Positions 39,831-56,774 are shown, counted from the stretch's first letter. The stretch: DNA of 64,000 bases from Candidatus Lloydbacteria bacterium RIFCSPHIGHO2_02_FULL_50_18 (GCA_001821395.1 MHLM01000001.1:128001-192000); one strand, 5' to 3'. Program-made: numbers and translations. The notes: a model not told the origin generated them from the sequence alone.

Positions 39831-39902
39831 GGCGTAGTGGCGAAGTGGTAACGCATAGATCTGCAAAATCTACATGCACCGGTCCGATTCCGGTCTACGC
39901 CT
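39831..39902 (+). tRNA. tRNA-Cys (anticodon GCA), discriminator U73, unusual T-loop TCCGATT
   Basis: GGCGTAG..TAGAT-CTGCAAA-ATCTA..ACCGG-TCCGATT-CCGGT-CTACGCC-T. Confidence 0.65.
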
Positions 39903-39975
39903 CCCTAAAACATTTTGTTGCAAAATGTTCGGGCGATCATTTTGCAACAAAATGATTTAGCCATGAACAAATGCT

Positions 39976-40056
39976 GCCCGGGTGGTGAAATGGTATACAC
40001 AGGAGACTTAAAATCTCCCGTCGCAAGGCATGTGGGTTCGACTCCCACCCCGGGCA
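39976..40056 (+). tRNA. tRNA-Leu (anticodon TAA), long variable arm
   Basis: GCCCGGG..GGAGA-CTTAAAA-TCTCC-long arm-GTGGG-TTCGACT-CCCAC-CCCGGGC-A. Confidence 0.8.
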
Positions 40057-40118
40057 CAAAGTAAATAAATCCCTGATGGGATTTATTTACTTTGTGCCCG
40101 GGAGAAAGCAAGCTGCCT

Positions 40119-40221
40119 TGCTTTCGCGTGGGAGTCGAAGCCCGTTTCGTTATTTGCGAAGAATTCCTATTCTGAGAAAATCGAAATGGGGTGCTGACCC
40201 AGCAAAGATCGAACCTCCCAC
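40119..40221 (+). repeat. tRNA-3'-end-derived repeat unit (Leu-TAA locus)
   Basis: Starts GTGGGAGTCGAAGCCC, has internal AAGAATTCCTATTCTGAGAAAATCGAAATGGGGTGCTGACC and ends GATCGAACCTCCCAC. The ends GTGGGAG and CTCCCAC are complementary. Confidence 0.55.
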
Positions 40222-40643
40222 GTTAATAGTGTAAAATGAGTCAATGAATAAAAAGATCGTCGCATCACTGACTCTCTCAATCGTTGTTTCATTTCTGATA
40301 ATAGTTACTGTTTCGAATTATTTTGCTGAGAAAGAAATAGCGAACCAGCGCTCTGAATACACAACTCGAGGAATAGCCTTTGGCGAAACTCTTGCCCCGT
40401 AGGCATACCTTTTCCATATGCATGCATGGGGCTTTGTGTTCGTGAAACCAATATAAAAAATTTGCTTGTAGATGTGGTGATCTTTTGCATTCCCACATAC
40501 ATTCTTGTCTATGCTTTACTTGTTTTGATAGCCAAAAGAAGATCTCGAATAGGTGACGTTTCATCAAACGTAAATTAGCCCCAGTGTTCGAATCTATTGC
40601 GAATCTTCCTTGATTTGCTATGATAGCGAAGTTAGGGAAAATT

Positions 40644-40719
40644 GCCTTCGTAGCTCAGTTGGTAGAGCAGCTCGCTCTTAACGAGACGGTCGCAGGTTCG
40701 AATCCTGCCGGGGGCACCA
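40644..40719 (+). tRNA. tRNA-Lys (anticodon CTT), CCA encoded
   Basis: GCCTTCG..CTCG-CTCTTAA-CGAG..GCAGG-TTCGAAT-CCTGC-CGGGGGC-ACCA. The acceptor 3' end lies in a long palindrome that contains a terminator hairpin. Confidence 0.85.
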
Positions 40720-40784
40720 TAAAAAAATCCGCGACAAGCGGATTTTTTTATGGTGCCCCCGAAGAAGTGCCCTGCGGCACTTCT

Positions 40785-40881
40785 GGCAGGATTCGAAGCC
40801 GTTCTCCCATATTTCTGAATGATTCATATCATGAGGAAATGGGAAACGGGTACTGACGCAGTAGGCGTCGAAACTCCTGCC
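40785..40881 (+). repeat. tRNA-3'-end-derived repeat unit (Lys locus)
   Basis: Starts GGCAGGATTCGAAGCCGTTCTCCCATATTTCTGAA, has internal GGGTACTGACGCAGTAGGCG and ends TCGAAACTCCTGCC. Terminal inverted repeats are about 17 nt. Confidence 0.55.
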
Positions 40882-41090
40882 GTGAGATTTCAAAAGACTG
40901 AGTATATTTCGCATGCCTGCGCATGCAGGTCTTCAAAATACGAAACCCAACATGCAGAGCTTGTCTTCGTGTCCCCAATGGCATCGGTGTGATTTCGCAC
41001 TTGCGAACAAGTCTATGAGAACCCAACTGATGTCGGTTTATTCTTCCACTTCCCTTTTATCCAAATTCCAGTACTATAGCCCTACACCCT

Positions 41091-41172
41091 GCCCAGGTGG
41101 CGTAATTGGTAGCCGCGCCAGTCTTAGGAACTGGTCTCGCAAGAGGTGGAGGTTCAAGTCCTCTCCTGGGCA
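41091..41172 (+). tRNA. tRNA-Leu (anticodon TAG), long variable arm
   Basis: GCCCAGG..CCAGT-CTTAGGA-ACTGG-long arm-GGAGG-TTCAAGT-CCTCT-CCTGGGC-A. Confidence 0.8.
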
Positions 41173-41226
41173 CAAAGAAAACCGCGTAAGCGGTTTTTGT
41201 GTGCCCAGAGCGACTGAATACTACAA

Positions 41227-41333
41227 AGAGTACTTCATTTTTCTAAAGCAGAATACTGCTAAGAAAAATTGGTCGCACCACAGAGAGTACTTCATTTTTC
41301 TAGAGCAGAATACTGCTAAGAAAAATTGGTCGC
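41227..41333 (+). repeat. tandem direct repeat, 2 x 50 bp (period 57 bp), nested inside an 8-bp inverted repeat (cgactgaa / ttcagtcg)
   Basis: agagtacttcatttttcta[a/g]agcagaatactgctaagaaaaattggtcgc occurs twice with a single mismatch. Confidence 0.7.
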
Positions 41334-41458: not shown

Positions 41459-44400
41459 TCATTCATTTCCCATCAATTCGTTTATTTTAGCCGAAGTGGT
41501 TTTACCAACATATCCGGTCCCCCTAACAAGACCCCAGGGCGCTAAAACATCTTCGGTATATTTTTCTTGGAATTTTATAACTGCTTTATAAGTCAAGAGG
41601 CCGAAATAATCAGTTTCCTTACCCGGAGAGCCAACACCCGAATCAGCCAATCGAGTATCGGGGTCGGAATTGAGGAAAATTTGCAAGCGTTTTATGTCTG
41701 CATTTGTTTGTCGGTATTGTCGGTATTGAGTAAATGGGTTAGTAAATGGCAAAATATTTATTCGCAAATTTTCCGTTACAGTAGTACCCGATCTTAGAAC
41801 GATTATGCTTGAAGCAGTATCTGATGATCTGCCGTAGGCAGTGTAAAATTTAACATAAACGGTATATTGTCCATCCGGACAGATTAGATTTTTAAGTGTA
41901 CCGCCAAATTTTGAGCATAAGTCCCATAGCTTGAAGGCGACATAATCTTCTCGGCTGGCATCAGTGAAATCTCCAGTCATTGAAATCGCCAATTGCTTGA
42001 TGTCCATTCCCGCATTAAAACCAAGTATGACATTTCTATTTGACGTTGTGCTTGATCCGGAATTTACAAAAACCTTAAATCCACCTGTCGGCGTTATCGG
42101 CAAATTACTCCAACCTGCTGGCATACCACCTCCCCCACTTGAAGTTACAGCAGGAGTTACTAAGACGGCGTCCCAAATCAAAGTAAAATTATGAGAGTTG
42201 GAATTTCCGACGTTATCTGAGGCAGTAAAACTGATTACATAAGTTCCGTTAGTATCGACTGAGATAGTTGTGCTCGACGCGGTACCGTCTCCAAACGTTA
42301 CCGCACCAGGTCCTGAAACTTTTGCCCACTGATAAGTTGAAGCGTTCATATCGCTCCCGGAATCTGAAGCTGCAGCGACTTGAGTAAATGTAGCTCCTTT
42401 ATTTTGATCATCTCCAGCACTAATGGTGGGATTTTGTTTATCAATTTTTATGATATTTGACGATTCTGTGTTCTCAATATTCCCTAAATTATCTACTGAG
42501 TAGTACCTTATATATTGCTGACAACTAGAACCTGAGTCACACGACAAACTAACACTTGTTCCTTCAGTGGTTGGCACGCAGCTATTATTAGTGTCAACGC
42601 AATAATATGTATGCGCTATTCCGCTTCCGCTATTATCAGACGGGTTCAAATTAATAGTAAGATCTGAACTATGCCAATTATCATCAGCATTATCGGTTGT
42701 AGTTGGAGACGTATTTCCCACTACAATCGATTCATTAAATGAAACGCTCCAATCGTAAAGGGGCAGTCCGGTACTGCCTGAAGATGGCGATACGCTCGTA
42801 TCTGTATCTCGAATATTACCACCTACGGCAGTAGCATCGCCGGCTTGTGCGCACCAAGATGCAACAACATAGCAACTCCAGGCGTATCTCAAATGTTGAT
42901 CTGTGCCAGTCGGCGTATCACTTAGAGTAATTTTTACTTGACTGTTATTATTTATAAGTTCTACTGAATCTATTGAAACACTATTGCCACCAGCCTGTGT
43001 AAATTCAAACCCATAATCAGGACGCTCCGCAACGTTGGCAGTATCAATAGCTAATGTTCCATAAGGGATATTATAATTGGCGATTATTACGTTACTCGAT
43101 CTCAAAATCGATGATGGCATGAGGGGATTCCAAGTCTGTCCCTCAAACAATACTTTATCCATAACTTTTGCAAACATCTCTCCCATTTTTTTTCTTGGGT
43201 ATTCACGTCCATATGGAGCTTGTCCGACCGATAATGATATTGATACTTTGGCTGGACCAAAATAATTTTTCCGGGATTATCTATATGCGCGTTTAATTGT
43301 GCTTCAGCTATTTCCCCCGTTGGCGCGGAATTCATTTGATTTATAAATAATGGGATAGTGTCGTTACGGCTAGTCAGAGTATTAAGATCGGTTTCATAAT
43401 CCAACTGCCATTCTTCAAGATAACTTTTATAATTTGCTCCGGCACCACCCACATAATCACTTTCTCCGTGAATTGAAGTAACTGCGATGGGTCGATACAG
43501 CTCGCCTAGCGTACTCTCAACGTAAGTTTTAGTTACACTTGCCTGTGTCATACCCTTGTTATACCAAGATGTCCCCTTTTTTAAACCACTGTAGTTAGTT
43601 CCACCATGTGCATGGAGGCCAACGACAATTGGACTGAGAAGATCTTCATACGCATGAAGGCTATTGGCCATTCCTGATGAGATTGTTTCCACATTACCGC
43701 CCTCTCCTTGCCCAGACTCAATTAATGGTATGAGCGGAGCAGCTGTTCCTTCAACTCCGGGGGTAAGCATAAGATTATTATAAGGCTGCGTAACGCTTAT
43801 AGGCGGTGAAGCATAATAAACTACGGCCAGACTTTGCCCCGTTGACAATATCTGATAGTAGGTTGTTTGCTCATTTACCGCGAAGGAAACAGTCCCGGAA
43901 TTATTTGTAAGAGCAGGAGTTGCTGACACGCTTATTATATGAGGAGACCCACTCGTACTTGTAGGTGTATAGGTGAATGTTTTTGCATCTGACGAACCGG
44001 ACCACGACAACGAAGTTGGCGCAAACGTTCCGGCACCAGTTGATGACGATGTAATCGTGCCGGTATATTCGCCATCAGGCGTCACAATAAAATTACCGGA
44101 TGCTGTAGCCATCGTGCCAGACGACGGGCCGGCAAAAGTAAATGATGTAGCGGGTGGCGCAAGGGTGACGACTGAAAATTCAGAACTGTCTGCGGTTGCA
44201 GGGACGCCATCGGTAACCCTGAGCTTGTAATAATAAATCGTAGCGGGAGATAGTCCGGTATCTGATAATGTGAGCGATGTTTGTCCGCTTAAAATATTCC
44301 CAACACCCGGCGTAAAACCGCTGCTTATGCTACGGTACCACTGATAAATATAGGGTGCTATTCCTCCTGTTGCTTCCGAAGATGAAAGATCGATACTTGA

Positions 44401-45189
44401 ATCTGTTTTCTCCATTAAACTAATTGAGCCGGCGCTAAAAGTAGAAAACGGATATTCAAGCCCTGTGCCCGAATTGTATAAACTCGTGATCTCATCTGGA
44501 GTTAGTATTTTTTTCCAAAAACCAACAGAATCAATGCGCCCGTCCAAATACATTGTAGCACCAGAAGCCTGAAATCTCCCGATTGTAAATGCTGCGCTAG
44601 TATTTGCCGGCTCGGAACCGGCGACGCTTGTATTGGTATACGTATTATTAACAGTTATGGTATTAGTATGAGTGGTAGCATTGTGGCTACATGTGAGAAA
44701 ATACCATTGGCCAATCTGGACTCCCCCCGTTGGAGTCACATATGCATCTACCGATGGAAAAGTAGAACAGCGAAACGTGTCGGAACTAACACCGTAATAC
44801 AAAGCATATTCTCCGGTGCTGCCATATTTTCCAACAAACGTCATATTTGTTGATTTGGTATCAAGATAGACCCATGCAGAAATAGTAAAATCTATACCGC
44901 CTATACTCAAACTGGGATTATCAACGATGCTTAAATATTCTGAGTTAGCCATAGTTAACTGCGCAGAATTTCCAAGTTTGCCAACTCCTTGAGTCACCGT
45001 ATTGTTGTCGGTCAGATTATTTGAACTAACACTATCTGCTCGCGTACCACTTACCTCATCTAATTTCCAATAAGAAATAAGTGATGTGGATAAATCCGTT
45101 GCAAAAACATGAGAGAAAAATTGTGTGTACAACGACACCGAAATTAAAAGCAGGGCAAATATTTTAAAATTTTTTCGAAAGGTTTTCAT
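41459..45189 (-). CDS. large secreted surface protein (about 1250 aa if read through): signal peptide, LamG-like lectin domain, Ig/FN3-like region, SASA/sialate-O-acetylesterase-like (SGNH) domain, beta-rich repeats, C-terminal peptidoglycan-binding domain. Interrupted by a frameshift at an A8 tract at 43186-43193, giving ORFs 43102-45189 and 41459-43186.
   Basis: N-terminus MKTFRKNFKIFALLLISVSL is a signal peptide. LamG segments FTISAWVYLD and GRIDSVGFWKKILTPDEITSLYNSG. Esterase motifs GQSLAV, HGESDY and DKLHMD. Adding one A to the coding-strand A8 run joins ...DKLHMDVNTQEKK to MGEMFAKVMDKV..., restoring the SASA C-terminal consensus. C-terminal PG_binding-like segment DIKRLQIFLNSDPDTRLADSGVGSPGKETDYFGLLTYKAVIKFQ. 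Confidence 0.55.
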
Positions 45190-45619: not shown

Positions 45620-46606
45620 ATGACTATTTCTGAAAGCACCTTAGACAAGGTCGGCGCAATGGGCGCTGCATTCTCTCTCATTGACCTCATTCGCGGGTTC
45701 AGCCATGGAGGCGTTCACGTCGGCGGAGGCACGGGCGGAGTAGGTTTTCTTACTTCTCTTCTCACTGTGCTCGTCAGAGTATGGGAAGAAAAAGGCGGGA
45801 GCATGAAAGACGAAAGCGAAATGCTCGAGTCAATGTTTGCAAACCCGCAAGCAAAGAATGAAAAACTCACACCGCAGGAACGTACCAAGATCGCGGCCGT
45901 CATCAAGGCGATGACTCCGGCAGAGCAGAAAGTGTTCCGCATCGCAATTTTTGTGATGGACCCCGATGTGACGACGATCGAAGTACCGGAGAAAAAAGAC
46001 AAGGACGGCAAAGTCATCGCTGTAGCCGGAAAACGAACCGAAAAAACGGGAATTGATCCTCGGGTCAATGTCCTGCACGGTATCGCCGAGCACGTCCATG
46101 ACAACCTCGATAACGTCACCGAAGTGGCCGAATTACTTCGCGGTACGGGGGCGCTGGGTGGAAACAACGAGGCACTTAAGTTTCTCGTCAAGGTACAAGT
46201 AGAGCTCAAAAAGCTTCTTTGCACGTTCTTCGGGGTCGAATCCGTCGATCTTATCACCTTCGACATGGTCAAAGAAAAGGCAACCGTGCTCATCGGAAAT
46301 ATCGGTGTGCCGAATGCCAATTTGCCGGGACCTCCGGTCGGTCCGCTCATGCGAGTGGGTCGCCTCATCACGCCGGGGAGTTATCGCAATGCTCCTGCAT
46401 CGAAAAGCGTGAAGTCCAAGAAAGAGGTAAGGTCGACGAGCCTGCTGAAGATGTTTGCAGTGGTAGCATGTATCACCGGCATCCTCGCTTACGGCTTGTA
46501 CTTCGGAGCTTCAAAGTACCGAGCGTACCAAAGAGATACTGAGATTGACAACATCATCAACGCGTATCAACCGACCAAAACGTCGGCTGAGCAGCCGATG
46601 AAATAG
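45620..46606 (+). CDS. hypothetical protein (328 aa) with Gly-rich N-terminal hydrophobic segment and C-terminal TM anchor
   Basis: No recognisable domain. Its stop lies 18 nt before the next gene, consistent with an operon. Confidence 0.5.
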   Translation: MTISESTLDKVGAMGAAFSLIDLIRGFSHGGVHVGGGTGGVGFLTSLLTVLVRVWEEKGGSMKDESEMLESMFANPQAKNEKLTPQERTKIAAVIKAMTPAEQKVFRIAIFVMDPDVTTIEVPEKKDKDGKVIAVAGKRTEKTGIDPRVNVLHGIAEHVHDNLDNVTEVAELLRGTGALGGNNEALKFLVKVQVELKKLLCTFFGVESVDLITFDMVKEKATVLIGNIGVPNANLPGPPVGPLMRVGRLITPGSYRNAPASKSVKSKKEVRSTSLLKMFAVVACITGILAYGLYFGASKYRAYQRDTEIDNIINAYQPTKTSAEQPMK

Positions 46607-46624
46607 GTCTCAAGGAGAAATCTC

Positions 46625-48247
46625 ATGAGTTTATGGAAAAAAGCAGGCTACGGCCTTTTGGGAATTTCGGCCATTCTCGGTCGAAGGACCCTCTCGTCCG
46701 CATACGACCGCCAGATCGAGGGCATTACCGACGCGCATATCAAATATGTCGGCGGCGCAATGCTCTTCGGAGTTTGCGGTCTCGTGCTTAACTTCATCTT
46801 TTTGATGAATGGGATGCACGGCATGCAAACAGCGCTCTTCGGAGTTATCTGTCTTGCGTCACTGTATTACATGATCGCGCCAAAAATGAGCATTCCGCTC
46901 ATCATCGCGGCCGCAGCGGTTCATGCCGGAGAGGCGAAAGATCAAGCGAAGCTCAAACTGCTCGGCGACGGAGTGAAAGACATTGTCAATCTGGCAAGTC
47001 TGGCACTCTTTTGGATCGGTGTGTACATCGTCGGAACGATCATTGCCCCATGGGACTTGAGTTGGGAATTCTTTCTTTTCCTTCACATGTTCATCATCAT
47101 GGCACTACTGCTCTTTGTGAGCGGCAAGGCATCGGTCAGCACGAAAGTGTACGATAATTGCTTCAAGTTCACCATTGCTGTGATCGTTGTCAGCGTACTC
47201 ACGATCGCAATCGGACGTGAGCACGTAGGACCATTATGGGCGCAATTCTCCGCAAGCAAAACTTCTCGTATCGAGGCCAAGTTGAACGCAAGTTCGATTA
47301 AGACCGCAGACGAAGCGTCAGCCGAGTGGATTGAGAAGAATGTTCACATCGATAAGCGGACCGGTGAGCAATTCGTCATCGTTACCGACAAGGTCACCGG
47401 CAAACAAAAACCGGTCGCCGCACAGCCCTACATTGAGAGGGAGAAGCAACGCAGGAACGAAACCATCCGCTCGGTCACGGAAAAAGGCGGAAAGACCAAT
47501 GCGACAAACACGAGACAGGATAATAAGGGAGGTTACTTCTCTTATGAATACTGGAACGCAAAAGCGCATGAATGGTCGGAATCCTGGGGGGTACCACTCT
47601 TCGTCGGCATCATTGCAGTATTGGCAATGGTCGTGGCACACTTCATTCCCGTCATCTGGGGAGGAAAGAAACTCTTTGGAAAGTCAGGTACTGAAACGGC
47701 AAAGGTTGTTAGTACGCCGAAGGAGTCCGGAAACGGACTTGTTGCCACATTACTCGTTGCGGGTGCTCTCGTGTATATTGGCTTTCAGTATACGCAAGGT
47801 GAACGAGGAGCAAAAGCCAATATGGCACCGCAAACAAGCGTTGCGACATATGCCACACTAAAGAAAGGAGATGCCGGTCTGTGGATGGCCTACTGGAGTG
47901 ACATGAACGGGCACTCCATTTACAGACTTCCTCAAGATAGATGGCATGGGCGAACTGTTTCGCTTTTGCCAGGCAGCTCTGTTTCGAATGTGTCCGACAT
48001 CACGCTTGTTTTTGATCCTAATGATCCAAGTACCAATATCTCATTTAACGGAGATTGCGTTGCCGGTAGCTACGATATTCAAAAAGAGTGCGTCGGATAC
48101 TGGAGAACAGAAGTGGGGTCCGGTACTTTCAGGCTTGAATGGTGGGGAAGCCAGGAAACATTCCACATTGCACTGTTTCCGGGACAACTGCCGGCAAAAG
48201 GACAGGCACAAGCCATCAAGGAGATACGCTTCGTAAAAAAACAATGA
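46625..48247 (+). CDS. hypothetical polytopic membrane protein (540 aa; about 6 N-terminal TM, soluble insert, 2 more TM, C-terminal beta-rich domain)
   Basis: Hydrophobicity pattern only. Followed by a bidirectional terminator at 48278-48312. Confidence 0.5.
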   Translation: MSLWKKAGYGLLGISAILGRRTLSSAYDRQIEGITDAHIKYVGGAMLFGVCGLVLNFIFLMNGMHGMQTALFGVICLASLYYMIAPKMSIPLIIAAAAVHAGEAKDQAKLKLLGDGVKDIVNLASLALFWIGVYIVGTIIAPWDLSWEFFLFLHMFIIMALLLFVSGKASVSTKVYDNCFKFTIAVIVVSVLTIAIGREHVGPLWAQFSASKTSRIEAKLNASSIKTADEASAEWIEKNVHIDKRTGEQFVIVTDKVTGKQKPVAAQPYIEREKQRRNETIRSVTEKGGKTNATNTRQDNKGGYFSYEYWNAKAHEWSESWGVPLFVGIIAVLAMVVAHFIPVIWGGKKLFGKSGTETAKVVSTPKESGNGLVATLLVAGALVYIGFQYTQGERGAKANMAPQTSVATYATLKKGDAGLWMAYWSDMNGHSIYRLPQDRWHGRTVSLLPGSSVSNVSDITLVFDPNDPSTNISFNGDCVAGSYDIQKECVGYWRTEVGSGTFRLEWWGSQETFHIALFPGQLPAKGQAQAIKEIRFVKKQ

Positions 48248-48331: not shown

Positions 48332-48688
48332 CTAAATAGGAACAGTTGTTTGAATAGTAGGCGCGGTACCCAGTCCGCCGAGCGGTGCAAGTCCCAATTC
48401 TGTTTGGATGAATCCGATGATCGACCAGAGCGCTACAATCACAAAAATACCCACCATGCCCCATACGAGAAACATCCTCCCCTCCTGCACCGCCTTCTCA
48501 TCATCGGCATGCCAAATGAATTTTACGACACCCCAAAAAAATACCGCAACCGCACAACCCAACAGTACGGGCATGATGGTCTGCATGAGATTAATGAGAT
48601 CATCCATGATGGTGATCACCGACGTCTGAGCAAGTGCAAATGTTGGTAAGAAAAAAAACGTACCGAGAATAAAAGATCGTTTAGACAT
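48332..48688 (-). CDS. VirB2/TrbC-like (T4SS-pilin-like) small membrane protein, paralog 1 of 8
   Basis: Signal peptide ending AQT, then two TM helices joined by a charged loop (AVAVFFWGVVKFIWHADDEKAVQEGRMFLVWGMVGIFVIVALW) and a short Gly/Thr-rich C-tail. Confidence 0.5.
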   Translation of the reverse strand: MSKRSFILGTFFFLPTFALAQTSVITIMDDLINLMQTIMPVLLGCAVAVFFWGVVKFIWHADDEKAVQEGRMFLVWGMVGIFVIVALWSIIGFIQTELGLAPLGGLGTAPTIQTTVPI

Positions 48689-49001
48689 AATTCATCAGCG
48701 TCATATCGCCGCCTATTGAGCTAATAAGGAATCGCATGATACCAAACACGGCAACCATGATGAACATGCCAATGATACCCCATATCATACCGAGACGCCC
48801 CTTATCGCGCATCTCCGCATTATCCGGATTCCAGATATACGCGACCACTCCGTAGATAAAATAGACGGTCGCGAGTGCAAAGAGCAAAGCGATGATAGGA
48901 TTCAAAATATACGTCGAGATGTTGCCGACGAAAGTGAGCACCGATGCGGGAATCGGGGGCGCAGCTGCTTCTGCTACGCTTGGAAAAAAAATGTTTAACA
49001 T
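48681..49001 (-). CDS. VirB2/TrbC-like small membrane protein, paralog 2 (start MLNIFFPSV at 49001)
   Basis: Same architecture: LFALATVYFIYGVVAYIWNPDNAEMRDKGRLGMIWGIIGMFIMVAVFG. Overlaps paralog 1 by 8 nt. Confidence 0.5.
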   Translation of the reverse strand: MLNIFFPSVAEAAAPPIPASVLTFVGNISTYILNPIIALLFALATVYFIYGVVAYIWNPDNAEMRDKGRLGMIWGIIGMFIMVAVFGIMRFLISSIGGDMTLMNYV

Positions 49002-49104
49002 GAATAAATTATAGCATCTCAATAAAAATTGACTATCCGAATGAGCAAACAAAAACCCCCGAGAACATTCTCGGGGGGTTTTTGTAATCCTATTTTTATC
49101 AGGA

Positions 49105-49461
49105 CTAGACTCCAGGAACAGCAAATGCTGGTGGTGTTGACGTGGTTATTGTCCCAGTCAATCCAAGCTGAGTCTGAGCCCAACCAAGAATACCCCAGAG
49201 AGCGACCATGACAAAGATCGCAACCATACCCCAGATCATAAGCGTCTTACCCTGCTCCTTTGCGGCTTCATCGCTTGCATTAGCGATATATTTGACCAAG
49301 CCCCAAAAGAACGCAACGACCGCAAGACCCATGAGTAATGGGATCAAAAGCGAGATAATACCCTGAACGCTGTTTACGAGATCGGCGATACCGGTGAGCA
49401 CGGTTGCTGCAGAAGCAACTGCGGGACCCACAAGCATCATTCCGATGATAAATTTCTTCAT
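49105..49461 (-). CDS. VirB2/TrbC-like small membrane protein, paralog 3 (start MKKFIIGMML)
   Basis: Signal peptide AVASAAT, then LAVVAFFWGLVKYIANASDEAAKEQGKTLMIWGMVAIFVMVALWG. Confidence 0.5.
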   Translation of the reverse strand: MKKFIIGMMLVGPAVASAATVLTGIADLVNSVQGIISLLIPLLMGLAVVAFFWGLVKYIANASDEAAKEQGKTLMIWGMVAIFVMVALWGILGWAQTQLGLTGTITTSTPPAFAVPGV

Positions 49462-49635
49462 AGATTTGATAATAATTAATAAATACACCGCCAAAACTAT
49501 AACTTAATGCTATCGCACAAACCGATGTCAAGCAATAGAAAAAAAAGATACCTGTGGATTACTGTTTCCGTTACCCGGAATCACAAAAATCGACCTCTTC
49601 ACATGCCTGATGATCATATTTTTGTACGATAAGAG

Positions 49636-49998
49636 CTAATGGATGCCGCCAGTCGAATCCACATAATCCGGTGCGCCTCCCGGCATAATCCCAAATGTAT
49701 CAACAAGAAGAATTCGCACTATTCCCCATACGGAGAAGAGCACGACGAACGCGATAATCCCCCAAATGATGAATTGCTTTCCTTTTTCACGTTCAACGGG
49801 ATCGTTCGCATTACCGATAAATTTTACGACGCCCCAGAAAAAGAACATGATGGCAGCGATCCAGAAAAATTGTCCGGCCTTCACCAAAATATTGTAGACA
49901 AGCACCTCGAGGTCAAAGACGTCCGTGACTTGCGCGAAAACAAGGGATGGAGTGCCAAGAAGCGTCGCAATACCGAACTGTTTGTTTATTGTTCTCAT
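49636..49998 (-). CDS. VirB2/TrbC-like small membrane protein, paralog 4
   Basis: Signal peptide VFAQVT, then FWIAAIMFFFWGVVKFIGNANDPVEREKGKQFIIWGIIAFVVLFSVWG. Confidence 0.5.
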   Translation of the reverse strand: MRTINKQFGIATLLGTPSLVFAQVTDVFDLEVLVYNILVKAGQFFWIAAIMFFFWGVVKFIGNANDPVEREKGKQFIIWGIIAFVVLFSVWGIVRILLVDTFGIMPGGAPDYVDSTGGIH

Positions 49999-50013
49999 GA
50001 AAATAAAAAATAA

Positions 50014-50358
50014 TTATGAGGGCGTACTCAAAAAAGGAATACCGAACGAACCTCCAAAGAGTGTTGAATTCAAGATACCGATGAGTCCCCACATCCCAAG
50101 CACAACCGCGATACCGATGATGGCCCACAGCAGATAGGGCTTGATCTCTTCGCGCCTTTTCTCATTATCTGAATTCATCATATAGAGCGCGATACCATAT
50201 ACGAGTCCGGCGATAAGCGCGGCAAAGAAAATGGAGATAATGTTCTTTAAGACTCCCAAGAGCAACTCGACGAAACTCTTGAAGTCCGTCGGCGTAGTAG
50301 CGGCAAAAGTAATAAGGGGGGAACAGAAGACTAGCGTCGCAAAGATGAATTTTTTCAT
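50014..50358 (-). CDS. VirB2/TrbC-like small membrane protein, paralog 5 (start MKKFIFATL)
   Basis: Signal peptide ITFAATT, then FFAALIAGLVYGIALYMMNSDNEKRREEIKPYLLWAIIGIAVVLGMWG. Confidence 0.5.
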   Translation of the reverse strand: MKKFIFATLVFCSPLITFAATTPTDFKSFVELLLGVLKNIISIFFAALIAGLVYGIALYMMNSDNEKRREEIKPYLLWAIIGIAVVLGMWGLIGILNSTLFGGSFGIPFLSTPS

Positions 50359-50365
50359 ATACATA

Positions 50366-50704
50366 TTAAAATAATATCGCCGTACCATATACCATGTCTG
50401 CGATGACTTTTGCACCAAGGATAATGAGCCCGCCAACGAGTGTCCACGTGAGCCAGATCTTCGCCTTCGTCACCTGCGCTTCATCCCCCCCCGCGGTGAC
50501 GAACTGAAAACCAGCATAAATAATACAGCACGCGAGCGCGGGTATGCCGACCAGCTGCATGATCTCGATCAGCCAATAGATAAAATCCTGAAGCGTAAGA
50601 ATTGAGGGAGCCGGATTTGATAGCAGTGTCCATGATGCAGCAAGTGAAATTCTTGGTTGCGAGAGGGTGAGTGTGGCGAAAGATACTAAGGCTGTTTTTT
50701 TCAT
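50366..50704 (-). CDS. VirB2/TrbC-like small membrane protein, paralog 6
   Basis: Signal peptide ISLAASW, then GIPALACCIIYAGFQFVTAGGDEAQVTKAKIWLTWTLVGGLIILGAKV. Confidence 0.5.
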   Translation of the reverse strand: MKKTALVSFATLTLSQPRISLAASWTLLSNPAPSILTLQDFIYWLIEIMQLVGIPALACCIIYAGFQFVTAGGDEAQVTKAKIWLTWTLVGGLIILGAKVIADMVYGTAILF

Positions 50705-50723
50705 AAAGGTATTGGGATTCAGA

Positions 50724-51083
50724 TCACAATGAGCTAATAGTCGCCTGTATCGCTGCGGCGATCACTTTCGCACCGAGCAGCACGAGTGCCCCCAACAGTG
50801 TCCACTTGAAGGTGGTACGAGCCTTCGCAATCTGCGCCTCATTGTCCCCCGCGGTCACAAAGAGAAATCCGCCATAAATGATGAACATCACAATAATGGG
50901 CACTCCGATAAGAAAAACGAGGTCGACGATAGCGAGCAGGAGATCGGGAATAGAGGTAATCCCACCGTAAGTGATCGGGTTTACATAGCTTGACGAAGCA
51001 GCAGACGCCGTATGCGTACCCATTAAAAGTCCGAGCGTTGTCAGGTTTAATGGTTTTGTTATGTAGTGTTGCATAAGTATCAT
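50724..51083 (-). CDS. VirB2/TrbC-like small membrane protein, paralog 7
   Basis: Signal peptide HTASAASS, then GVPIIVMFIIYGGFLFVTAGDNEAQIAKARTTFKWTLLGALVLLGAKV. Closest relative of paralog 6. Confidence 0.5.
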   Translation of the reverse strand: MILMQHYITKPLNLTTLGLLMGTHTASAASSSYVNPITYGGITSIPDLLLAIVDLVFLIGVPIIVMFIIYGGFLFVTAGDNEAQIAKARTTFKWTLLGALVLLGAKVIAAAIQATISSL

Positions 51084-51087
51084 GAAT

Positions 51088-51561
51088 TTATGGCCCCAAG
51101 AAATTAAATGACGATCCGGTACCAAGGAAGAATTCGAGGATGAAATTAACAGTCACCCACGCCGCAAGTGCGATAATGAGTCCCCAGAACACATTCAAGA
51201 AAACGTCGTGCGCCTGTTTGACTTGGCCTTCATTGCCACGATTGGTCACGTAGAGAAAACCGGCATAGGCGAACATGACCGCACCCAATGGTGCTGCGAT
51301 CTTGAAAATGAGGAAATTGATCACATTCTGCGCAGTCTCGATCACGTCGTTAAAATAACATTCCTCATGATTACCCGGGGTGGTAGCATTTGATGCCCAG
51401 ACCAAGGGGCTCGGATCTTTGACCGCACCGTCTCCATTAATGTCAAATCCGCAAGGAATGATCGTTGACGGTGAAGCTGCGAATACAGAGAATGGGGTCA
51501 CGAGTATCAAAACACCGAGGAATATCGCAGAAACAAATCGATGAGTGACACTGTTGTGCAT
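51088..51561 (-). CDS. VirB2/TrbC-like small membrane protein, paralog 8, with extra Cys-containing N-terminal module
   Basis: Signal peptide SVFAASP, extra segment CGFDINGDGAVKD..NHEECYF, then AAPLGAVMFAYAGFLYVTNRGNEGQVKQAHDVFLNVFWGLIIALAAW. Confidence 0.5.
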   Translation of the reverse strand: MHNSVTHRFVSAIFLGVLILVTPFSVFAASPSTIIPCGFDINGDGAVKDPSPLVWASNATTPGNHEECYFNDVIETAQNVINFLIFKIAAPLGAVMFAYAGFLYVTNRGNEGQVKQAHDVFLNVFWGLIIALAAWVTVNFILEFFLGTGSSFNFLGP

Positions 51562-52911: not shown

Positions 52912-53472
52912 CTATGCCCGCATCTCCGTACTATTCACCTGATAAAGACCTTTCCGAAATATAAGACCATAATGAAAATTTCCCGCATTGACTGTTTTTT
53001 CAAAGGTGAAATTCAGCGATTCAACGAGCTTTCGCGCTTCTGTTTCAGGAAACACTTGTTCGGTCGTCGGTCCCATATTATTGAAAGACGCCGTCCAGTC
53101 GATCAGCATGAGTCTTCCACCCTGCTTGAGTACTCGGCGTGCCTCATCCAGAACGTTTTTTTTATCGGATGCCTGAAAGAGCACGTTCGAAACAACGACG
53201 ACATCGCATACCCCATCGCTCAATTTCGTCCCGCCCAAAAGTTCGACATCTCCCCAGAGAAATGAAACATTGCCGATGTGCTTTTCTTTACAGGTATTTT
53301 CGAGGCGCGTAAGCAAGTCCTTTTGCACCTCGATCGCGTACACCTTCCCTGTTCCGTGCATGGCTTCTGCCGCAGCGATTGTATATGCACCCGACCCCGC
53401 GCCAAAATCTGCAACCACCAAATTATCGGCTAACCCTAATTGTTCGATATTCTTCTCCGGTGCTGAAAACAT
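52912..53472 (-). CDS. class I SAM-dependent methyltransferase
   Basis: Motif I VVADFGAGSGAYT, motif II VYAIEV, post-I acidic residue, and motif IV region DVVVVSNVL. Confidence 0.65.
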   Translation of the reverse strand: MFSAPEKNIEQLGLADNLVVADFGAGSGAYTIAAAEAMHGTGKVYAIEVQKDLLTRLENTCKEKHIGNVSFLWGDVELLGGTKLSDGVCDVVVVSNVLFQASDKKNVLDEARRVLKQGGRLMLIDWTASFNNMGPTTEQVFPETEARKLVESLNFTFEKTVNAGNFHYGLIFRKGLYQVNSTEMRA

Positions 53473-54296: not shown

Positions 54297-56774
54297 TTAC
54301 AGGGTTATTAGGGAAGCGATGGAATCGCCTTCCCGCAGCTTCATGATCCGTACCCCCTGTGTCTGACGACCAAGGATCGGCACTTCTTTCAGTGTCACAC
54401 GAATGACCTGGCTATTCTTTGAGATCGCAACAATCTCCCCATCGCGATCGGCGACCACAAGTCCCGTCATAATTTTTCCCGTCTTTGGTGTCACTTTTGC
54501 AGTTTTGATCCCTGACCCGCCGCGTTTCTGCACTTTATACTCTGAGAGTTTACTCATTTTACCGTAACCCTTTTCTGAGAGCACGACAAGAAGCGGATCG
54601 GCATCGGTTTTCTTGATGACATCGGCGGTCACGATCTTATCTTTGCCCTTCAGGTTCATACCGCGCACCCCTCCGGCGCTCCTTCCCATTTCGCGCACGT
54701 CAGAGTGCTTAAAACGGATAGACTGACCCTCTTGCGAAACAAGGGAGATATCATCGCCCGTTTCAACAAAACGTGCGGTGAGGAGCTGGTCGTTCGGCTG
54801 AAGCTTGATCGCAATGAGTCCGCTGCGGCGCACATCGCGGAAACCGTCTGCGGCGACCTTTTTGACCACTCCGCACTCGGTCACCATAACTAAGGAGAGT
54901 TTTTCTGCTGTCTTCATCTCCTTCGGCATCGCGAGCATCGAGGTCACCGACTCGTCTCCTCCGAGCGACAGATAATTCATGATGGATTTCCCCTTTGTTG
55001 CCCGCCGCCCCTCCGGAAGCTCATAGGCTTTTATCTGGTACGCTTTACCCTTGTCCGTAAAAAACAGGATGTCGGCGTGCGTTGATGTCGTCAAGAACAT
55101 CTTCACGAAATCTTCTTCTTTCGTATCGAGATCCATCACGCCCACTCCGCCGCGTTTCTGCGTATGATATTCCACGGGATCGGTACGCTTAATGTATCCG
55201 CCATCAGAAAAAACAAGTACGGTTTCCTTCTCCGGAATGGTGTCCTCGATGGAGATCGTCTGCACTCCGCCTTTCATGATCTTTGTACGACGCTCATCTC
55301 CATACTTCTCTTTCATTTCTATCATCTCCGCCTTGATGACGCCCATCATCTTCTTCATACTTGCGAGGATCGACTCAAGCTCTTTGATGATCTCACTAAG
55401 TGCCTTCAGTTCATCATCGATCTTCTTGCGCTCAAGGCCTGCAAGTTTTGCAAGTTTCATTTCAAGAATTGCGGCAGCTTGCTTATCAGAGAACTTGAAT
55501 TCCTTCATCAGATTTGCATGAGCGGTCGGAGTATCTTTTGAGGCCTTGATGAGTTTGATAATCGCATCAATATGGTCGAGTGCCTTTTTAAGCCCAAGTA
55601 AAATGTGCTCGCGGTCTTTTGCTTTTGCAAGATCAAACTCTGTGCGTCGCTTCACTACCGCTTTGCGATGTTTGATGAAGACCTCGAGAATACTCTTGAT
55701 CGAAAGTGTCTGGGGGACTCCGTCAACAAGCCCGACCATATTGTAGTGGAACGTTGTTTCGATCTCGGTATGTTTGTAGAGATAGTTCAAGACTTTCTGC
55801 GGAGGTACGCCCTGCTTCAAATATACGGCAATACGAATATCGCCCTTTGCGGACTCATCACGAAGATCTTTGATGCCTTCAAGTTTTTTCTCACGCACAA
55901 GGTCGGCGATCTTCTCGAGAAGCATCGCCTTGTTCACGCGGTACGGTAAGCTCGTGATAATGATTTCTGTTTGCCCTGCCTTCTGCTCCACGATCTCCGC
56001 CTCACCGCGGCAAACGACTCCCCCGCGCCCTGTTGCATATGCATGACGGATATCTAACTTATTGTAGGCAACTCCACCGGTCGGAAAATCCGGACCTTTG
56101 ATGAATTCGAGCAGATCCTCTCCCGTTGCCTCTGGGTTATCGATGAGATGAGTCAATGCATCAACGACTTCACCGAGATTGTGCGGAGGGATAGAGGTCG
56201 CCATACCAACCGCAATACCCAGCGTACCGTTCAAAAGAAGATTCGGGACAACCGACGGCAATACCGAAGGTTCTTTTTTTGAACCGTCATAGTTCGGACG
56301 GAAGTCAACGGTATCCTTATCGAGGTCACGAAGTACCTCCCCCGCAATACGCGACATCTTTGCTTCCGTATAACGATATGCAGCAGCGGAGTCTCCATCG
56401 ATCGAGCCAAAGTTCCCTTGACCCAAGACCAGAGGGTAGCGCATCGAGAAAAGCTGGGCCATCTTGACCATCGCATCATAGACAGATGAGTCTCCGTGGG
56501 GATGGTACGATCCGAGCACCGCACCAACCACCGTCGCTGATTTTTTGAATCGCGCAGAGGAGGAAAGCCCCATTTCATGCATCGCATAGAGGATGCGACG
56601 ATGGACGGGCTTCAGTCCATCACGCACATCGGGAAGTGCGCGGTCCACAATAACAGACATCGCGTAATCAATGAATGACTCTCGCATCTCTGTGACGATG
56701 TTGACCGGCAATACTCCAACCGTACCGATCTCCGGAGTTGGGCTTTCTTCTTTTTTTTCTACTGCTTTGCTCAT
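54297..56774 (-). CDS. gyrA: DNA gyrase subunit A
   Basis: Active-site region [14 protein letters not shown] and AAMRYTEAKM with catalytic Tyr. C-terminal beta-pinwheel repeats with GyrA-box-like QKRGGVG. Confidence 0.85.

Follow-up and report, generated by a model that had tools for sequence, protein, structure and literature searches.

Two adjacent genes in the stretch of Candidatus Lloydbacteria DNA analyzed here (64,000 nucleotides, called the window below) are the two parts of a single ancestral gene whose reading frame breaks at a run of eight A's. We think it probable that the break is a genuine and young frameshift in this one gene, that it has abolished or strongly reduced the gene's function, and that slippage rescues the full-length product at a low level at most. 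In kind, it resembles any ordinary recent frameshift, and we found no evidence for an evolved on/off switch.

Two overlapping reading frames meet at an A8 tract

On the minus strand, open reading frames (ORFs) at 45189-43102 (695 aa) and 43186-41459 (575 aa) lie in different frames and overlap by 85 nt, exactly as a preliminary description of this DNA had placed them (43102-45189 and 41459-43186). Both meet at eight A's on the coding strand at 43193..43186 (T8 on the plus strand), where that strand reads ...GAC AAG CTC CAT ATG GAC GTG AAT ACC CAA GAA AAA AAA TGG.... Because K668 (43188-43186) and M669 (43186-43184) have base 43186 in common, the step from the upstream to the downstream frame is -1. 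Adding one A to the tract yields one ORF of 1243 codons that has no further stop and reads ...DKLHMDVNTQEKKMGEMFAKVMDKV..., which bears out the earlier expectation that a ninth A would give one protein of ~1250 aa; a -1 slip at the tract likewise leads to the 1243-aa protein. We found no second lesion across the 1243 codons, and both halves are intact apart from the shift. The parts of the gene are as follows.

41459..45189, minus strand: whole ancestral gene, 1243-codon frame with a -1 shift at the tract (ORF repair and alignment with the orthologue L010, described below)
43102..45189, minus strand: upstream ORF, 695 aa, with signal peptide, LamG, Ig/Fn3-like region and esterase core to K668
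43186..43193, minus strand: A8 tract, site of the 1-nt deletion, with the zero-frame slippery heptamer A_AAA_AAA
41459..43186, minus strand: downstream ORF, 575 aa, -1 frame, with the rest of the esterase helix, beta-sandwich, OmpL47-type domain, PKD domain and C-terminal peptidoglycan (PG)-binding region

After K668, the upstream ORF runs into a 27-aa out-of-frame tail (WERCLQ...HHRF) and a TGA stop; its 695-aa product is deposited as OGZ05239.1 / OGZ10391.1. The downstream ORF, which has no signal peptide of its own, is given as 575, 567 or 553 aa depending on the pipeline (NCBI OGZ05238.1). An alternative genetic code was rejected, as homology carries on in the -1 frame and not past the TGA of the upstream frame.

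Homologues and orthologues read through the junction

When a 385-aa query spanning the junction was compared with databases, ~100 homologues matched 97-99% of it, and all were unbroken there. These proteins conserve D-x-x-H ... G-E-x-x-[AG]-K-V across the junction and so support the earlier placement of the break in a SASA-type esterase, between the DxxH histidine and the GE..AKV helix.

Two close orthologous loci, L009 and L010, show what was lost. In L010 one uninterrupted ORF encodes 1350 aa; the alignment covers the N-terminal ~830 aa and the C-terminal ~200 aa. The junction codons are GAA AAA CAG ATG in L010 and GAA AAA CAA ATG in L009 (EKQM), both in frame; the equivalents of the tract are A5-C-A3 in L009 and A5-C-A (then G) in L010. 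The DNA alignment of the window with L009 contains a single indel in 240 nt, within the tract (GAAAAA-AAATGGG versus GAAAAACAAATGGG), and with the sole indel located there, chance does not account for the junction. After repair, the predicted sequence QEKKMGEMFAKV agrees with QEKQMGEMFAKV and QEKQMGEMYAKV of the orthologues. Since the orthologues carry AAA-CAA/CAG-ATG (K-Q-M), the window has lost the C, and this one 1-nt deletion in the genome of the Lloydbacteria population has given rise to both the frameshift and the homopolymer. Annotating two ORFs (OGZ05239.1 + OGZ05238.1) is thus misleading, as had been proposed: there was one ancestral gene, and its orthologues are continuous.

Further searches were made for the junction. 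In a collection of genome contigs, a scan with a degenerate junction pattern gave no match, and of 55 pattern matches to the 385-aa module none was confirmed, which suggests that the collection includes neither the species nor its relatives. A scan of metagenome contigs found one locus alone, L010; the collection is a subset (JGI contigs known to carry the gene were not returned), and the scan is no census of tract lengths. From a 147-aa junction-centered protein search for in-frame alleles came four candidates and no matches, with an index that also missed the 695-aa ORF of the window itself. Another locus (P0133/L011) was discarded as a second split orthologue, its upstream part having a 100-N scaffold gap and no N-terminal similarity.

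Domains and fold of the repaired protein

The gene product would be a secreted, cell-wall-anchored multidomain protein, with, in order, a signal peptide, LamG, an Ig/Fn3-like region, a SASA/SGNH esterase plus beta-sandwich, an OmpL47-type domain, PKD and a peptidoglycan-binding C terminus.

45100..45189, minus strand: predicted Sec signal peptide (MKTFRKNFKIFALLLISVSLYTQFFSHVFA/TD), read from the sequence by eye; conserved in L010
44488..44937, minus strand: Laminin_G_3 (PF13385; LamG / concanavalin-like), aa 85-234; E 2.8e-17, 63.7 bits, cut-off 27.6
43145..43872, minus strand: SASA/SGNH-type carbohydrate acetylesterase domain, aa 440-682; motifs, homologues and fold
42719..43123, minus strand: beta-sandwich, aa 690-824, together with the esterase in all ~100 homologues; homologues and model
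42455..42661, minus strand: OmpL47-type beta-barrel domain, aa 844-912; NF047446, E 3e-11, 43.6 bits, cut-off 40
42179..42406, minus strand: PKD / K319L-like PKD, aa 929-1004; PF22352 31.5 bits (cut-off 27), PF00801 24 bits (cut-off 23.5)
41462..42073, minus strand: conserved C-terminal region, aa 1040-1243; homologues
41558-41653, minus strand: PG_binding_1-like domain (PF01471), aa 1180-1211; 20.0 bits, E 7.7e-4, below the 23-bit cut-off

The profile search confirmed the LamG domain named in the preliminary description, and its two other domains scored below their profile thresholds. Against the SASA profile (PF03629), the repaired protein scored 22.3 bits (E 1.1e-4), below the gathering threshold of 24.8 bits, and L010 scored 23.9 bits; the match nevertheless crosses the junction (residues 502-677, model positions 63-224 of 226), and homologues and fold agree with it. 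A precomputed PF03629 match is present in ~40 of 120 homologues. The motifs are STGQS (S453), IHGESD (HGESD at 574-578) and SDKLH (D656, H659), and among 51 homologues G12, G136, E137, D139 and H220 (module numbering) are invariant and S14 is at least 90% conserved. As for peptidoglycan binding, PG_binding_1 reached 15.1 bits with the whole protein and 20.0 bits with the C-terminal 213 aa, both under the cut-off of 23, but among the homologues of the last ~80 aa, at 50-75% identity, ~40 have a PF01471 match or are named as peptidoglycan-binding proteins. A sequence search of the PDB with this domain returned nothing relevant, only spurious chitinase-like matches.

An AlphaFold model of the repaired esterase module (pLDDT 96.6, pTM 0.94) matched, by Foldseek, SIAE (E 1e-12), 1zmb (9e-11), 2apj (8e-10), NanS (6e-7) and XAC1771. 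On this model we confidently assign the module a SASA/SGNH carbohydrate acetylesterase fold followed by a beta-sandwich. With the SASA/sialate O-acetylesterases (PF03629: SIAE 8f9o/8f9p, NanS 3pt5, 1zmb, 2apj) and with XAC1771 (7kmm), it shares the SGNH-type fold, GQS, [QH]GESD and DxxH; it differs from them in its low identity (13-18%) and in its setting, as one part of a LamG/PKD/PG-binding surface protein of 1243 aa. For the arrangement of an esterase with a C-terminal beta-sandwich, the best match is the tailspike of cyanopodophage Pan3 (9vyh; TM 0.8, E 1e-22), and this modeled likeness to a phage tailspike deacetylase may be a lead to an action on surface polysaccharides of a partner cell. 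The last esterase helix comprises aa 663-682 and is cut after K668; in the model the junction falls between module residues 229 and 230, within helix 224-243, with the beta-sandwich next (251-382).

The position of the cut bears on whether the two ORFs might be separate functional genes, the second starting at the ATG inside the tract. That ATG (43186-43184) does open the downstream frame and is followed by GGGAGAG. However, the homologues and both orthologues have a single ORF across the junction, the split would lie inside a helix of one folded domain according to the model, and the downstream product would bring wall-binding and Ig-like extracellular domains without a signal peptide. We found nothing resembling a promoter near the junction, and no ribosome-binding site at a suitable distance before the downstream ATG. 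Two independent genes are thus extremely unlikely.

The A8 tract is present in every assembly inspected

To what extent the A8 is real can be judged from contigs of the ENA, JGI and Logan assemblies, which represent at least six Illumina samples and several pipelines. Fourteen contigs carried the downstream ORF, and the tract was A8 in all eight of the loci inspected. These contigs are 100% identical over 4.7 kb, save for an in-frame 21-bp deletion in one of them (L006) and one intergenic SNP, and contigs of up to 256 kb cross the tract unbroken. The same 695-aa product is found under two NCBI metagenome-assembled genome (MAG) accessions, and a protein from another run (P0123) has two amino acid changes and the same frameshifted tail. 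The A8 allele is therefore common to at least three haplotypes, which implies that the lesion has lasted for some time.

A sequencing or assembly artifact, with nine bases (A9 or A5CA3) and an intact gene in the true genome, was one of the two readings first proposed. Indel errors typically occur in homopolymers, and several of the public contigs may re-assemble overlapping sets of reads, so that not all of them need be independent. On the other hand, the presence of A8 in every assembly inspected, across samples and pipelines, makes a one-off assembly error unlikely. The window contains 11 A8/T8 runs, of which just the one at 43186-43193 joins two long open frames; four of the others, at 1029-1036, 19906-19913, 53156-53163 and 56751-56758, sit within intact long ORFs, and thus there is no general signature of homopolymer error. 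Illumina HiSeq has a low indel rate at 8-mers. This would have been the platform (150-bp reads, assembled per sample) if the samples are from the aquifer study that named the phylum, their probable source (PMC5079060). With the same state in eight contigs, two MAG proteins and one further run, we regard an artifact as very unlikely.

The tract shows no sign of an evolved switch

The preliminary description had also suggested reversible phase variation, in which replication slippage would switch the gene between A8 (OFF) and A9 (ON) and the consensus assemblies would all happen to be OFF. In favor of this reading, the gene encodes a surface protein, the tract is a homopolymer, a ninth A makes the 1243-aa ORF whole again, and there is neither a second lesion nor any detectable loss of constraint. 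A frame-setting repeat inside the ORF, as in contingency genes, is present, with a marginal length of 8; A8 ranks among the shorter A/T phase-variable tracts. The origin may also have had two steps, a change of CAA to AAA giving an in-frame A9 and then A9 to A8. Among the closest known systems is inlA of Listeria monocytogenes (Orsi et al. 2010, PMC2831843), likewise a gene for a cell-wall-associated surface protein truncated by a 1-nt change in poly(A), in which tracts of similar length mutate ~1000-fold faster than by point mutation and an added A can revert the lesion.

What we observed nonetheless argues against such a switch. No variation in tract length was seen among the consensus assemblies (eight contigs, two MAG protein records and one further run, covering the haplotypes above), including the long contigs that pass through the tract, and the exact 1243-aa in-frame product was absent from a collection of ~15 billion proteins. 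Looked for in relatives, the same tract was A8 in all assemblies inspected of the same population, but it was interrupted and in frame in L009 and L010, and their A5-C-A3 and A5-C-A mean that no contingency element has been conserved here. It also sits in the middle of the gene, at codon 668 of 1243, whereas the poly(A)/poly(T) tracts that accompany gene inactivation tend to lie near the 5' end (PMC2831843). In inlA the tract occupies the very 5' end of the gene (leaving an 8-aa product), has recurred independently in strains and has a measured length polymorphism (PMC2831843); in the window, by contrast, the deletion itself gave rise to the tract, and its length is the same throughout the available assemblies. 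We found no positive evidence for phase variation and consider it unlikely.

Constraint on the two sides of the lesion

We then compared the halves for signs of decay. Relative to L010, dN was 0.107 in the upstream esterase part and 0.106 just downstream, and dN/dS was 0.088 upstream and 0.092 in the C-terminal region, with synonymous sites saturated. Saturation extended to both L009 and L010 (pS 0.65-0.79), which left two usable measures, the comparison of dN and a relative-rate count on few changes, neither of them significant. In that count, lineage-specific changes at outgroup-conserved columns numbered 5 versus 2 downstream and 3 versus 5 upstream, with no significant excess (Fisher p ~0.3, calculated by hand). 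Equal constraint on both sides fits a very recent lesion and, equally, a gene kept functional by slippage or reversion.

Predicted products and the contribution of slippage

Under standard decoding, the A8 allele would yield a secreted 695-aa fragment that retains Ser453, Asp656 and His659. It would lack most of the last esterase helix (with the conserved G-E-x-x-x-K), the obligatory beta-sandwich, the downstream domains and the wall anchor, and the 575 downstream codons would lack a signal peptide. Given these losses, the gene has most likely become a young pseudogene, with its function abolished or greatly diminished, and a recent origin would accord with the intact halves. Occasional slippage of RNA polymerase (+A) or -1 slippage of the ribosome on A_AAA_AAA would still produce some full-length protein, probably at a low level.

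A different reading makes A8 the working state, with a useful fraction of full-length protein obtained through transcriptional slippage (+1 A), -1 frameshifting or both. The heptamer A_AAA_AAA, present in the zero-frame sequence GA_A AAA AAA_TGG, is a classic slippery site for -1 frameshifting, and nothing but the shift disrupts the gene. To restore the frame, one A must be inserted; insertions of this type are the commonest transcription error in A/T runs and become exponentially more frequent as runs lengthen (PMC5574713). Precedents exist in reduced-genome symbionts, where genes that are intact but for a single poly(A) indel are retained (PMC3017870), and in tssM1, whose A11 tract gives ~20% full-length product (PMC4256274). 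Recoding of this kind might provide two useful products, a free 695-aa fragment and an anchored full-length form.

Several observations stand against it. The tract has just eight A's, whereas documented bacterial cases of slippage have 9-11 or more (PMC5009743, PMC4256274), and E. coli RNA polymerase slips on runs of at least seven T's and needs more still for A (PMC6260861). No 3' stem-loop or pseudoknot was found: for the 80 nt past the tract the folding energy is -13.7 kcal/mol (z +0.80), a stability that 154 of 200 shuffles reached, and a 75-nt stretch across the tract (folding z +0.09) has no stable structure. Nor is there a GGAGG-like (Shine-Dalgarno-like) stimulator 10-14 nt upstream of the tract. 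The frameshift occurs in neither orthologue, the ~100 homologues are in frame too, and the same genome keeps A8 runs in ordinary intact genes, which argues that slippage at A8 is infrequent in this organism. We therefore judge functional recoding to be quite unlikely.

Like the slippage-rescued genes of Blochmannia and Buchnera (PMC3017870; PMC5009743), the window gene belongs to a reduced-genome bacterium of symbiont type, has a single indel in an A run, is otherwise intact and shows no accelerated evolution. In those endosymbionts, however, genome GC content is ~26-30%, the tracts usually have 9-12 nt, and certain frameshifts are shared between populations or species (PMC3017870, PMC5009743), whereas the window gene has A8 in a 48% GC genome and both orthologues in frame. 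In tssM1 of Citrobacter rodentium (PMC4256274), too, a poly-A run puts a C-terminal domain out of frame, so that truncated and full-length products are both possible; there, the run has 11 A's, ~20% frameshifting was measured and both products were shown to be needed (PMC4256274).

It is also conceivable, though quite improbable, that the deletion has just created a switch, so that a minority of cells (A8 to A9) or of transcripts makes the wall-anchored full-length product while the majority secretes the LamG-containing fragment. If so, a constitutive surface esterase/adhesin gene would have become variable through one deletion in an ultra-small, host-dependent bacterium of the candidate phyla radiation (CPR), and the case, caught at its origin, would be the first on record in which a homopolymer makes the expression of a CPR surface protein heterogeneous.

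Annotation and the groundwater population

As a frameshift in a single gene, the case holds nothing surprising in kind, and its practical value lies mainly in annotation. The "hypothetical proteins" OGZ05239.1 and OGZ05238.1, and their duplicates, should be flagged as frameshifted halves of one 1243-aa protein; counting them as two genes inflates the numbers of genes and protein families for the lineage. In a clonal groundwater population of Lloydbacteria, across several samples, a LamG/acetylesterase/PG-binding gene that is intact in relatives is disrupted, which hints that the surface protein is dispensable, or its loss favored, in that setting.

The frameshift at the A8 tract

The two ORFs of the surface-protein gene (minus strand, 41459..45189) lie exactly where the preliminary description placed them, at 45189..43102 (695 aa) and 43186..41459 (575 aa), in different frames with an overlap of 85 nt. 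The coding strand at the junction reads GAC AAG CTC CAT ATG GAC GTG AAT ACC CAA GAA AAA AAA TGG GAG, in which the eight A's are window positions 43193-43186. Codons K668 (43188-43186) and M669 (43186-43184) overlap by a single base, which puts the downstream frame at −1 with respect to the upstream one. As had been predicted, adding one A gave an unbroken ORF of 1,243 codons (junction, ...DKLHMDVNTQEKKMGEMFAKVMDKV...), and residue numbers below refer to this repaired protein. Among the 11 A8/T8 runs in the window, only this one sits at the meeting of two long frames; four others lie inside intact long ORFs.

Architecture of the repaired protein
aa 1-30, predicted Sec-type signal peptide, read from sequence
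aa 85-234, Laminin_G_3, E 2.8e-17
between LamG and the esterase, Ig/Fn3-like region, UniRef name fibronectin type-III
aa 440-824 (window 42719-43872), esterase module plus beta-sandwich, from motifs, model and structure matches
aa 844-912, OmpL47-type barrel, NF047446, 43.6 bits
aa 929-1004, PKD domain, profile match
aa 1040-1243, conserved C-terminal region, PG_binding_1-like match and homologues

The profile checks proposed at the outset bore out LamG on the repaired translation; the Pfam SASA match (residues 502-677) crosses the junction but, at 22.3 bits, falls just below its threshold of 24.8. The motifs GQS (S453), HGESD (574-578) and DKLH (D656, H659) vary little or not at all among homologues. 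A structure model of the module built with 50 homologues (pLDDT 96.6, pTM 0.94) matched best in the PDB the tailspike of cyanopodophage Pan3 (9vyh; TM 0.8, E 1e-22), followed by the carbohydrate/sialate O-acetylesterases XAC1771, SIAE, 1zmb, 2apj and NanS. Phage receptor-modifying enzymes may have this two-domain module in common with CPR surface proteins. The last ~80 aa gave a subthreshold PG_binding_1 match (20 bits) and share 50-75% identity with many proteins from Parcubacteria that either carry PF01471 or bear a peptidoglycan-binding name.

A single ancestral gene

A junction-spanning query of 385 aa (residues 440-824) matched 120 proteins, ~100 of them with 97-99% query coverage. In a MAFFT alignment every one of these was continuous across the junction, with D-x-x-H-[LM] conserved on its N-terminal side and G-E-x-x-[AG]-K-V on its C-terminal side. 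The preliminary description had suggested looking for the same tract in relatives; instead of A8, the close orthologues L009 (JGI 3300045377) and L010 (Ga0172367_10027034) have an interrupted, in-frame sequence. L009 reads GAA AAA CAA ATG GGA (E-K-Q-M-G), and its only indel against the window in 240 nt is GAAAAA-AAATGGG (window) versus GAAAAACAAATGGG (L009). L010 is one ORF of 1,350 aa with GAA AAA CAG ATG at the junction, and K-Q-M-G-E is also present in the more distant homologues P0019, P0021 and P0023. Because the homologues and both orthologues read through in frame, we infer that the ancestral state is a single gene with an interrupted A-rich sequence. Loss of the C in the window lineage would have created the frameshift and the A8 homopolymer in one event; a two-step origin, C to A and then A9 to A8, is possible.

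The single-gene reading is thereby borne out, and the two-ORF annotation is indeed misleading: in two Candidatus Lloydbacteria MAGs, NCBI lists the halves as separate proteins (OGZ05239.1/OGZ10391.1 and OGZ05238.1/OGZ10390.1). The downstream ORF does have an ATG, inside the tract, as two true genes would require, but that arrangement is extremely improbable given the continuous homologues and a search of this ORF that found no signal peptide and, near the ATG, no properly spaced ribosome-binding site or promoter-like site.

One homologue from ENA, P0094, leaves the family alignment just ahead of the DxxH motif (QPPMPLGEACAC...), which looks like an independent frameshift at another position. 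L009 and L010 have the N-terminal ~830 aa and the C-terminal ~200 aa in common with the window protein. In the middle (window 42100-42700), where the window has the OmpL47-type barrel and PKD domain, they instead carry Flg_new_2 repeats of InlB B-repeat-like type (L010 shows four matched stretches), a domain-cassette swap between conserved ends.

The A8 allele across assemblies

The downstream product was found on 14 contigs. Eight were fetched (L001-L008; ENA, JGI and Logan assemblies covering at least six samples, though some public contigs may reuse the same reads), and all eight carried A8. Across 4.7 kb they were 100% identical to the window, except for one intergenic SNP in L008 and an in-frame 21-bp deletion in L006 (ENA ERZ28563591, SAMN03842435; window ~44007-44027, L006 ~2187) that takes FAPTSLS out of the Ig/Fn3-like region and leaves an upstream product of 688 aa (P0122). 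A further protein match, P0123 (SRR3989338), has P145T and D327E yet an identical out-of-frame tail. The exact 1,243-aa in-frame product was not found in a protein collection of ~15 billion sequences, whose index is not exhaustive. The study naming the phylum used Illumina HiSeq 150-bp reads assembled per sample with IDBA-UD (PMC5079060).

A8 is thus the assembly consensus in every data set inspected and is common to at least three haplotypes, and for this reason a one-off assembly error, the alternative first raised, is unlikely. With the same consensus in eight of eight contigs, the two MAGs and P0123, a sequencing or assembly artefact of any kind is very improbable. The lesion, a 1-nt deletion in one ancestral gene, is genuine and population-wide.

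L002 and L003 (both JGI 3300002502) are ~34.6-kb contigs that each include the gene in full. Their overlap of ~6.7 kb is 100% identical, and one starts and the other stops near the locus, a pattern suggestive of a break in that assembly, either strain-level or repeat-induced. The initial 199 nt of L006 did not match the window. A 57-bp tandem repeat (41223-41333; 1.9 copies, 96% identical) is situated between the surface-protein gene's stop codon and tRNA-Leu; Logan contigs L005 and L007 terminate within it, at window position 41305.

Consequences of the frameshift

In the model, the junction falls between module residues 229 and 230, six residues into the last esterase-domain helix (224-243). 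Truncation there costs the product the nearly invariant G-E-x-x-x-K and the beta-sandwich (251-382) found alongside the esterase in every homologue, together with each later domain and the putative wall anchor. The 695-aa product retains the catalytic triad residues, ends in 27 unrelated residues and, from its predicted signal peptide, would still be exported. The A8 allele would be null or strongly reduced in function.

A_AAA_AAA is the classic −1 slippery heptamer and stands here in the zero frame. The run is also a site at which RNA polymerase slippage could add A's; this is the predominant transcription insertion error, and it climbs exponentially as the run lengthens (PMC5574713). Several facts weigh against efficient rescue: the runs of documented bacterial cases have 9-11 or more A's (PMC5009743; PMC4256274), A11 giving about 20% (PMC4256274); E. 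coli RNA polymerase requires at least 7 T's, and more for A (PMC6260861); there is no stable structure 3′ of the tract (z +0.8 and +0.09); the orthologues lack the frameshift; and A8 runs are kept in ordinary genes of the genome. Neither structure 3′ of the tract nor conservation in orthologues gave a sign of programmed frameshifting. On these grounds low-level rescue is plausible, though with no sign of being programmed, and functionally relevant rescue is quite improbable. The phase-variable switch proposed in the preliminary description is unsupported, since every assembly inspected has A8; phase variation is unlikely, and a homopolymer switch newly arisen in a surface protein of the CPR quite unlikely.

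In the comparison with L010, the esterase part upstream of the break had a dN of 0.107 and the stretch just downstream one of 0.106; dN/dS, with dS saturated, came to 0.088 for the upstream part and 0.092 for the C-terminal region. At outgroup-conserved columns, window-specific versus L010-specific changes numbered 3 versus 5 upstream and 5 versus 2 downstream (Fisher p about 0.3, hand calculation). None of these measures gave a signal separating a very young pseudogene from a gene in use. The locus is probably a fixed frameshift or young pseudogene, a further example of a well-known kind of event.

Neighboring features

Features flanking the surface-protein gene
39831-41173, plus strand, four tRNA genes (Cys-GCA, Leu-TAA, Lys-CTT, Leu-TAG), directly 3′ of the gene
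45620-48247, plus strand, two adjacent ORFs (328 aa and 540 aa), next to the gene
48332-51561, minus strand, tandem array of eight small paralogous genes (112-157 aa), PF18895 T4SS_pilin, E 3e-6 to 8e-10

Long palindromes at 39905-39960 and 40041-40108 gave matches on both strands to microRNA hairpin models, with scores far under the threshold. The 328-aa and 540-aa ORFs had no Pfam match at E ≤ 0.01; the 540-aa ORF has many hydrophobic segments, and the order of the pair beside the surface-protein gene is kept in all contigs extending there. The product of each of the eight T4SS_pilin genes has two hydrophobic helices besides its signal peptide, and for two of them there is also a weak match to TrbC/VirB2. 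Of the A8/T8 runs in the window, four fall within this 3-kb stretch, as does a C8 run.
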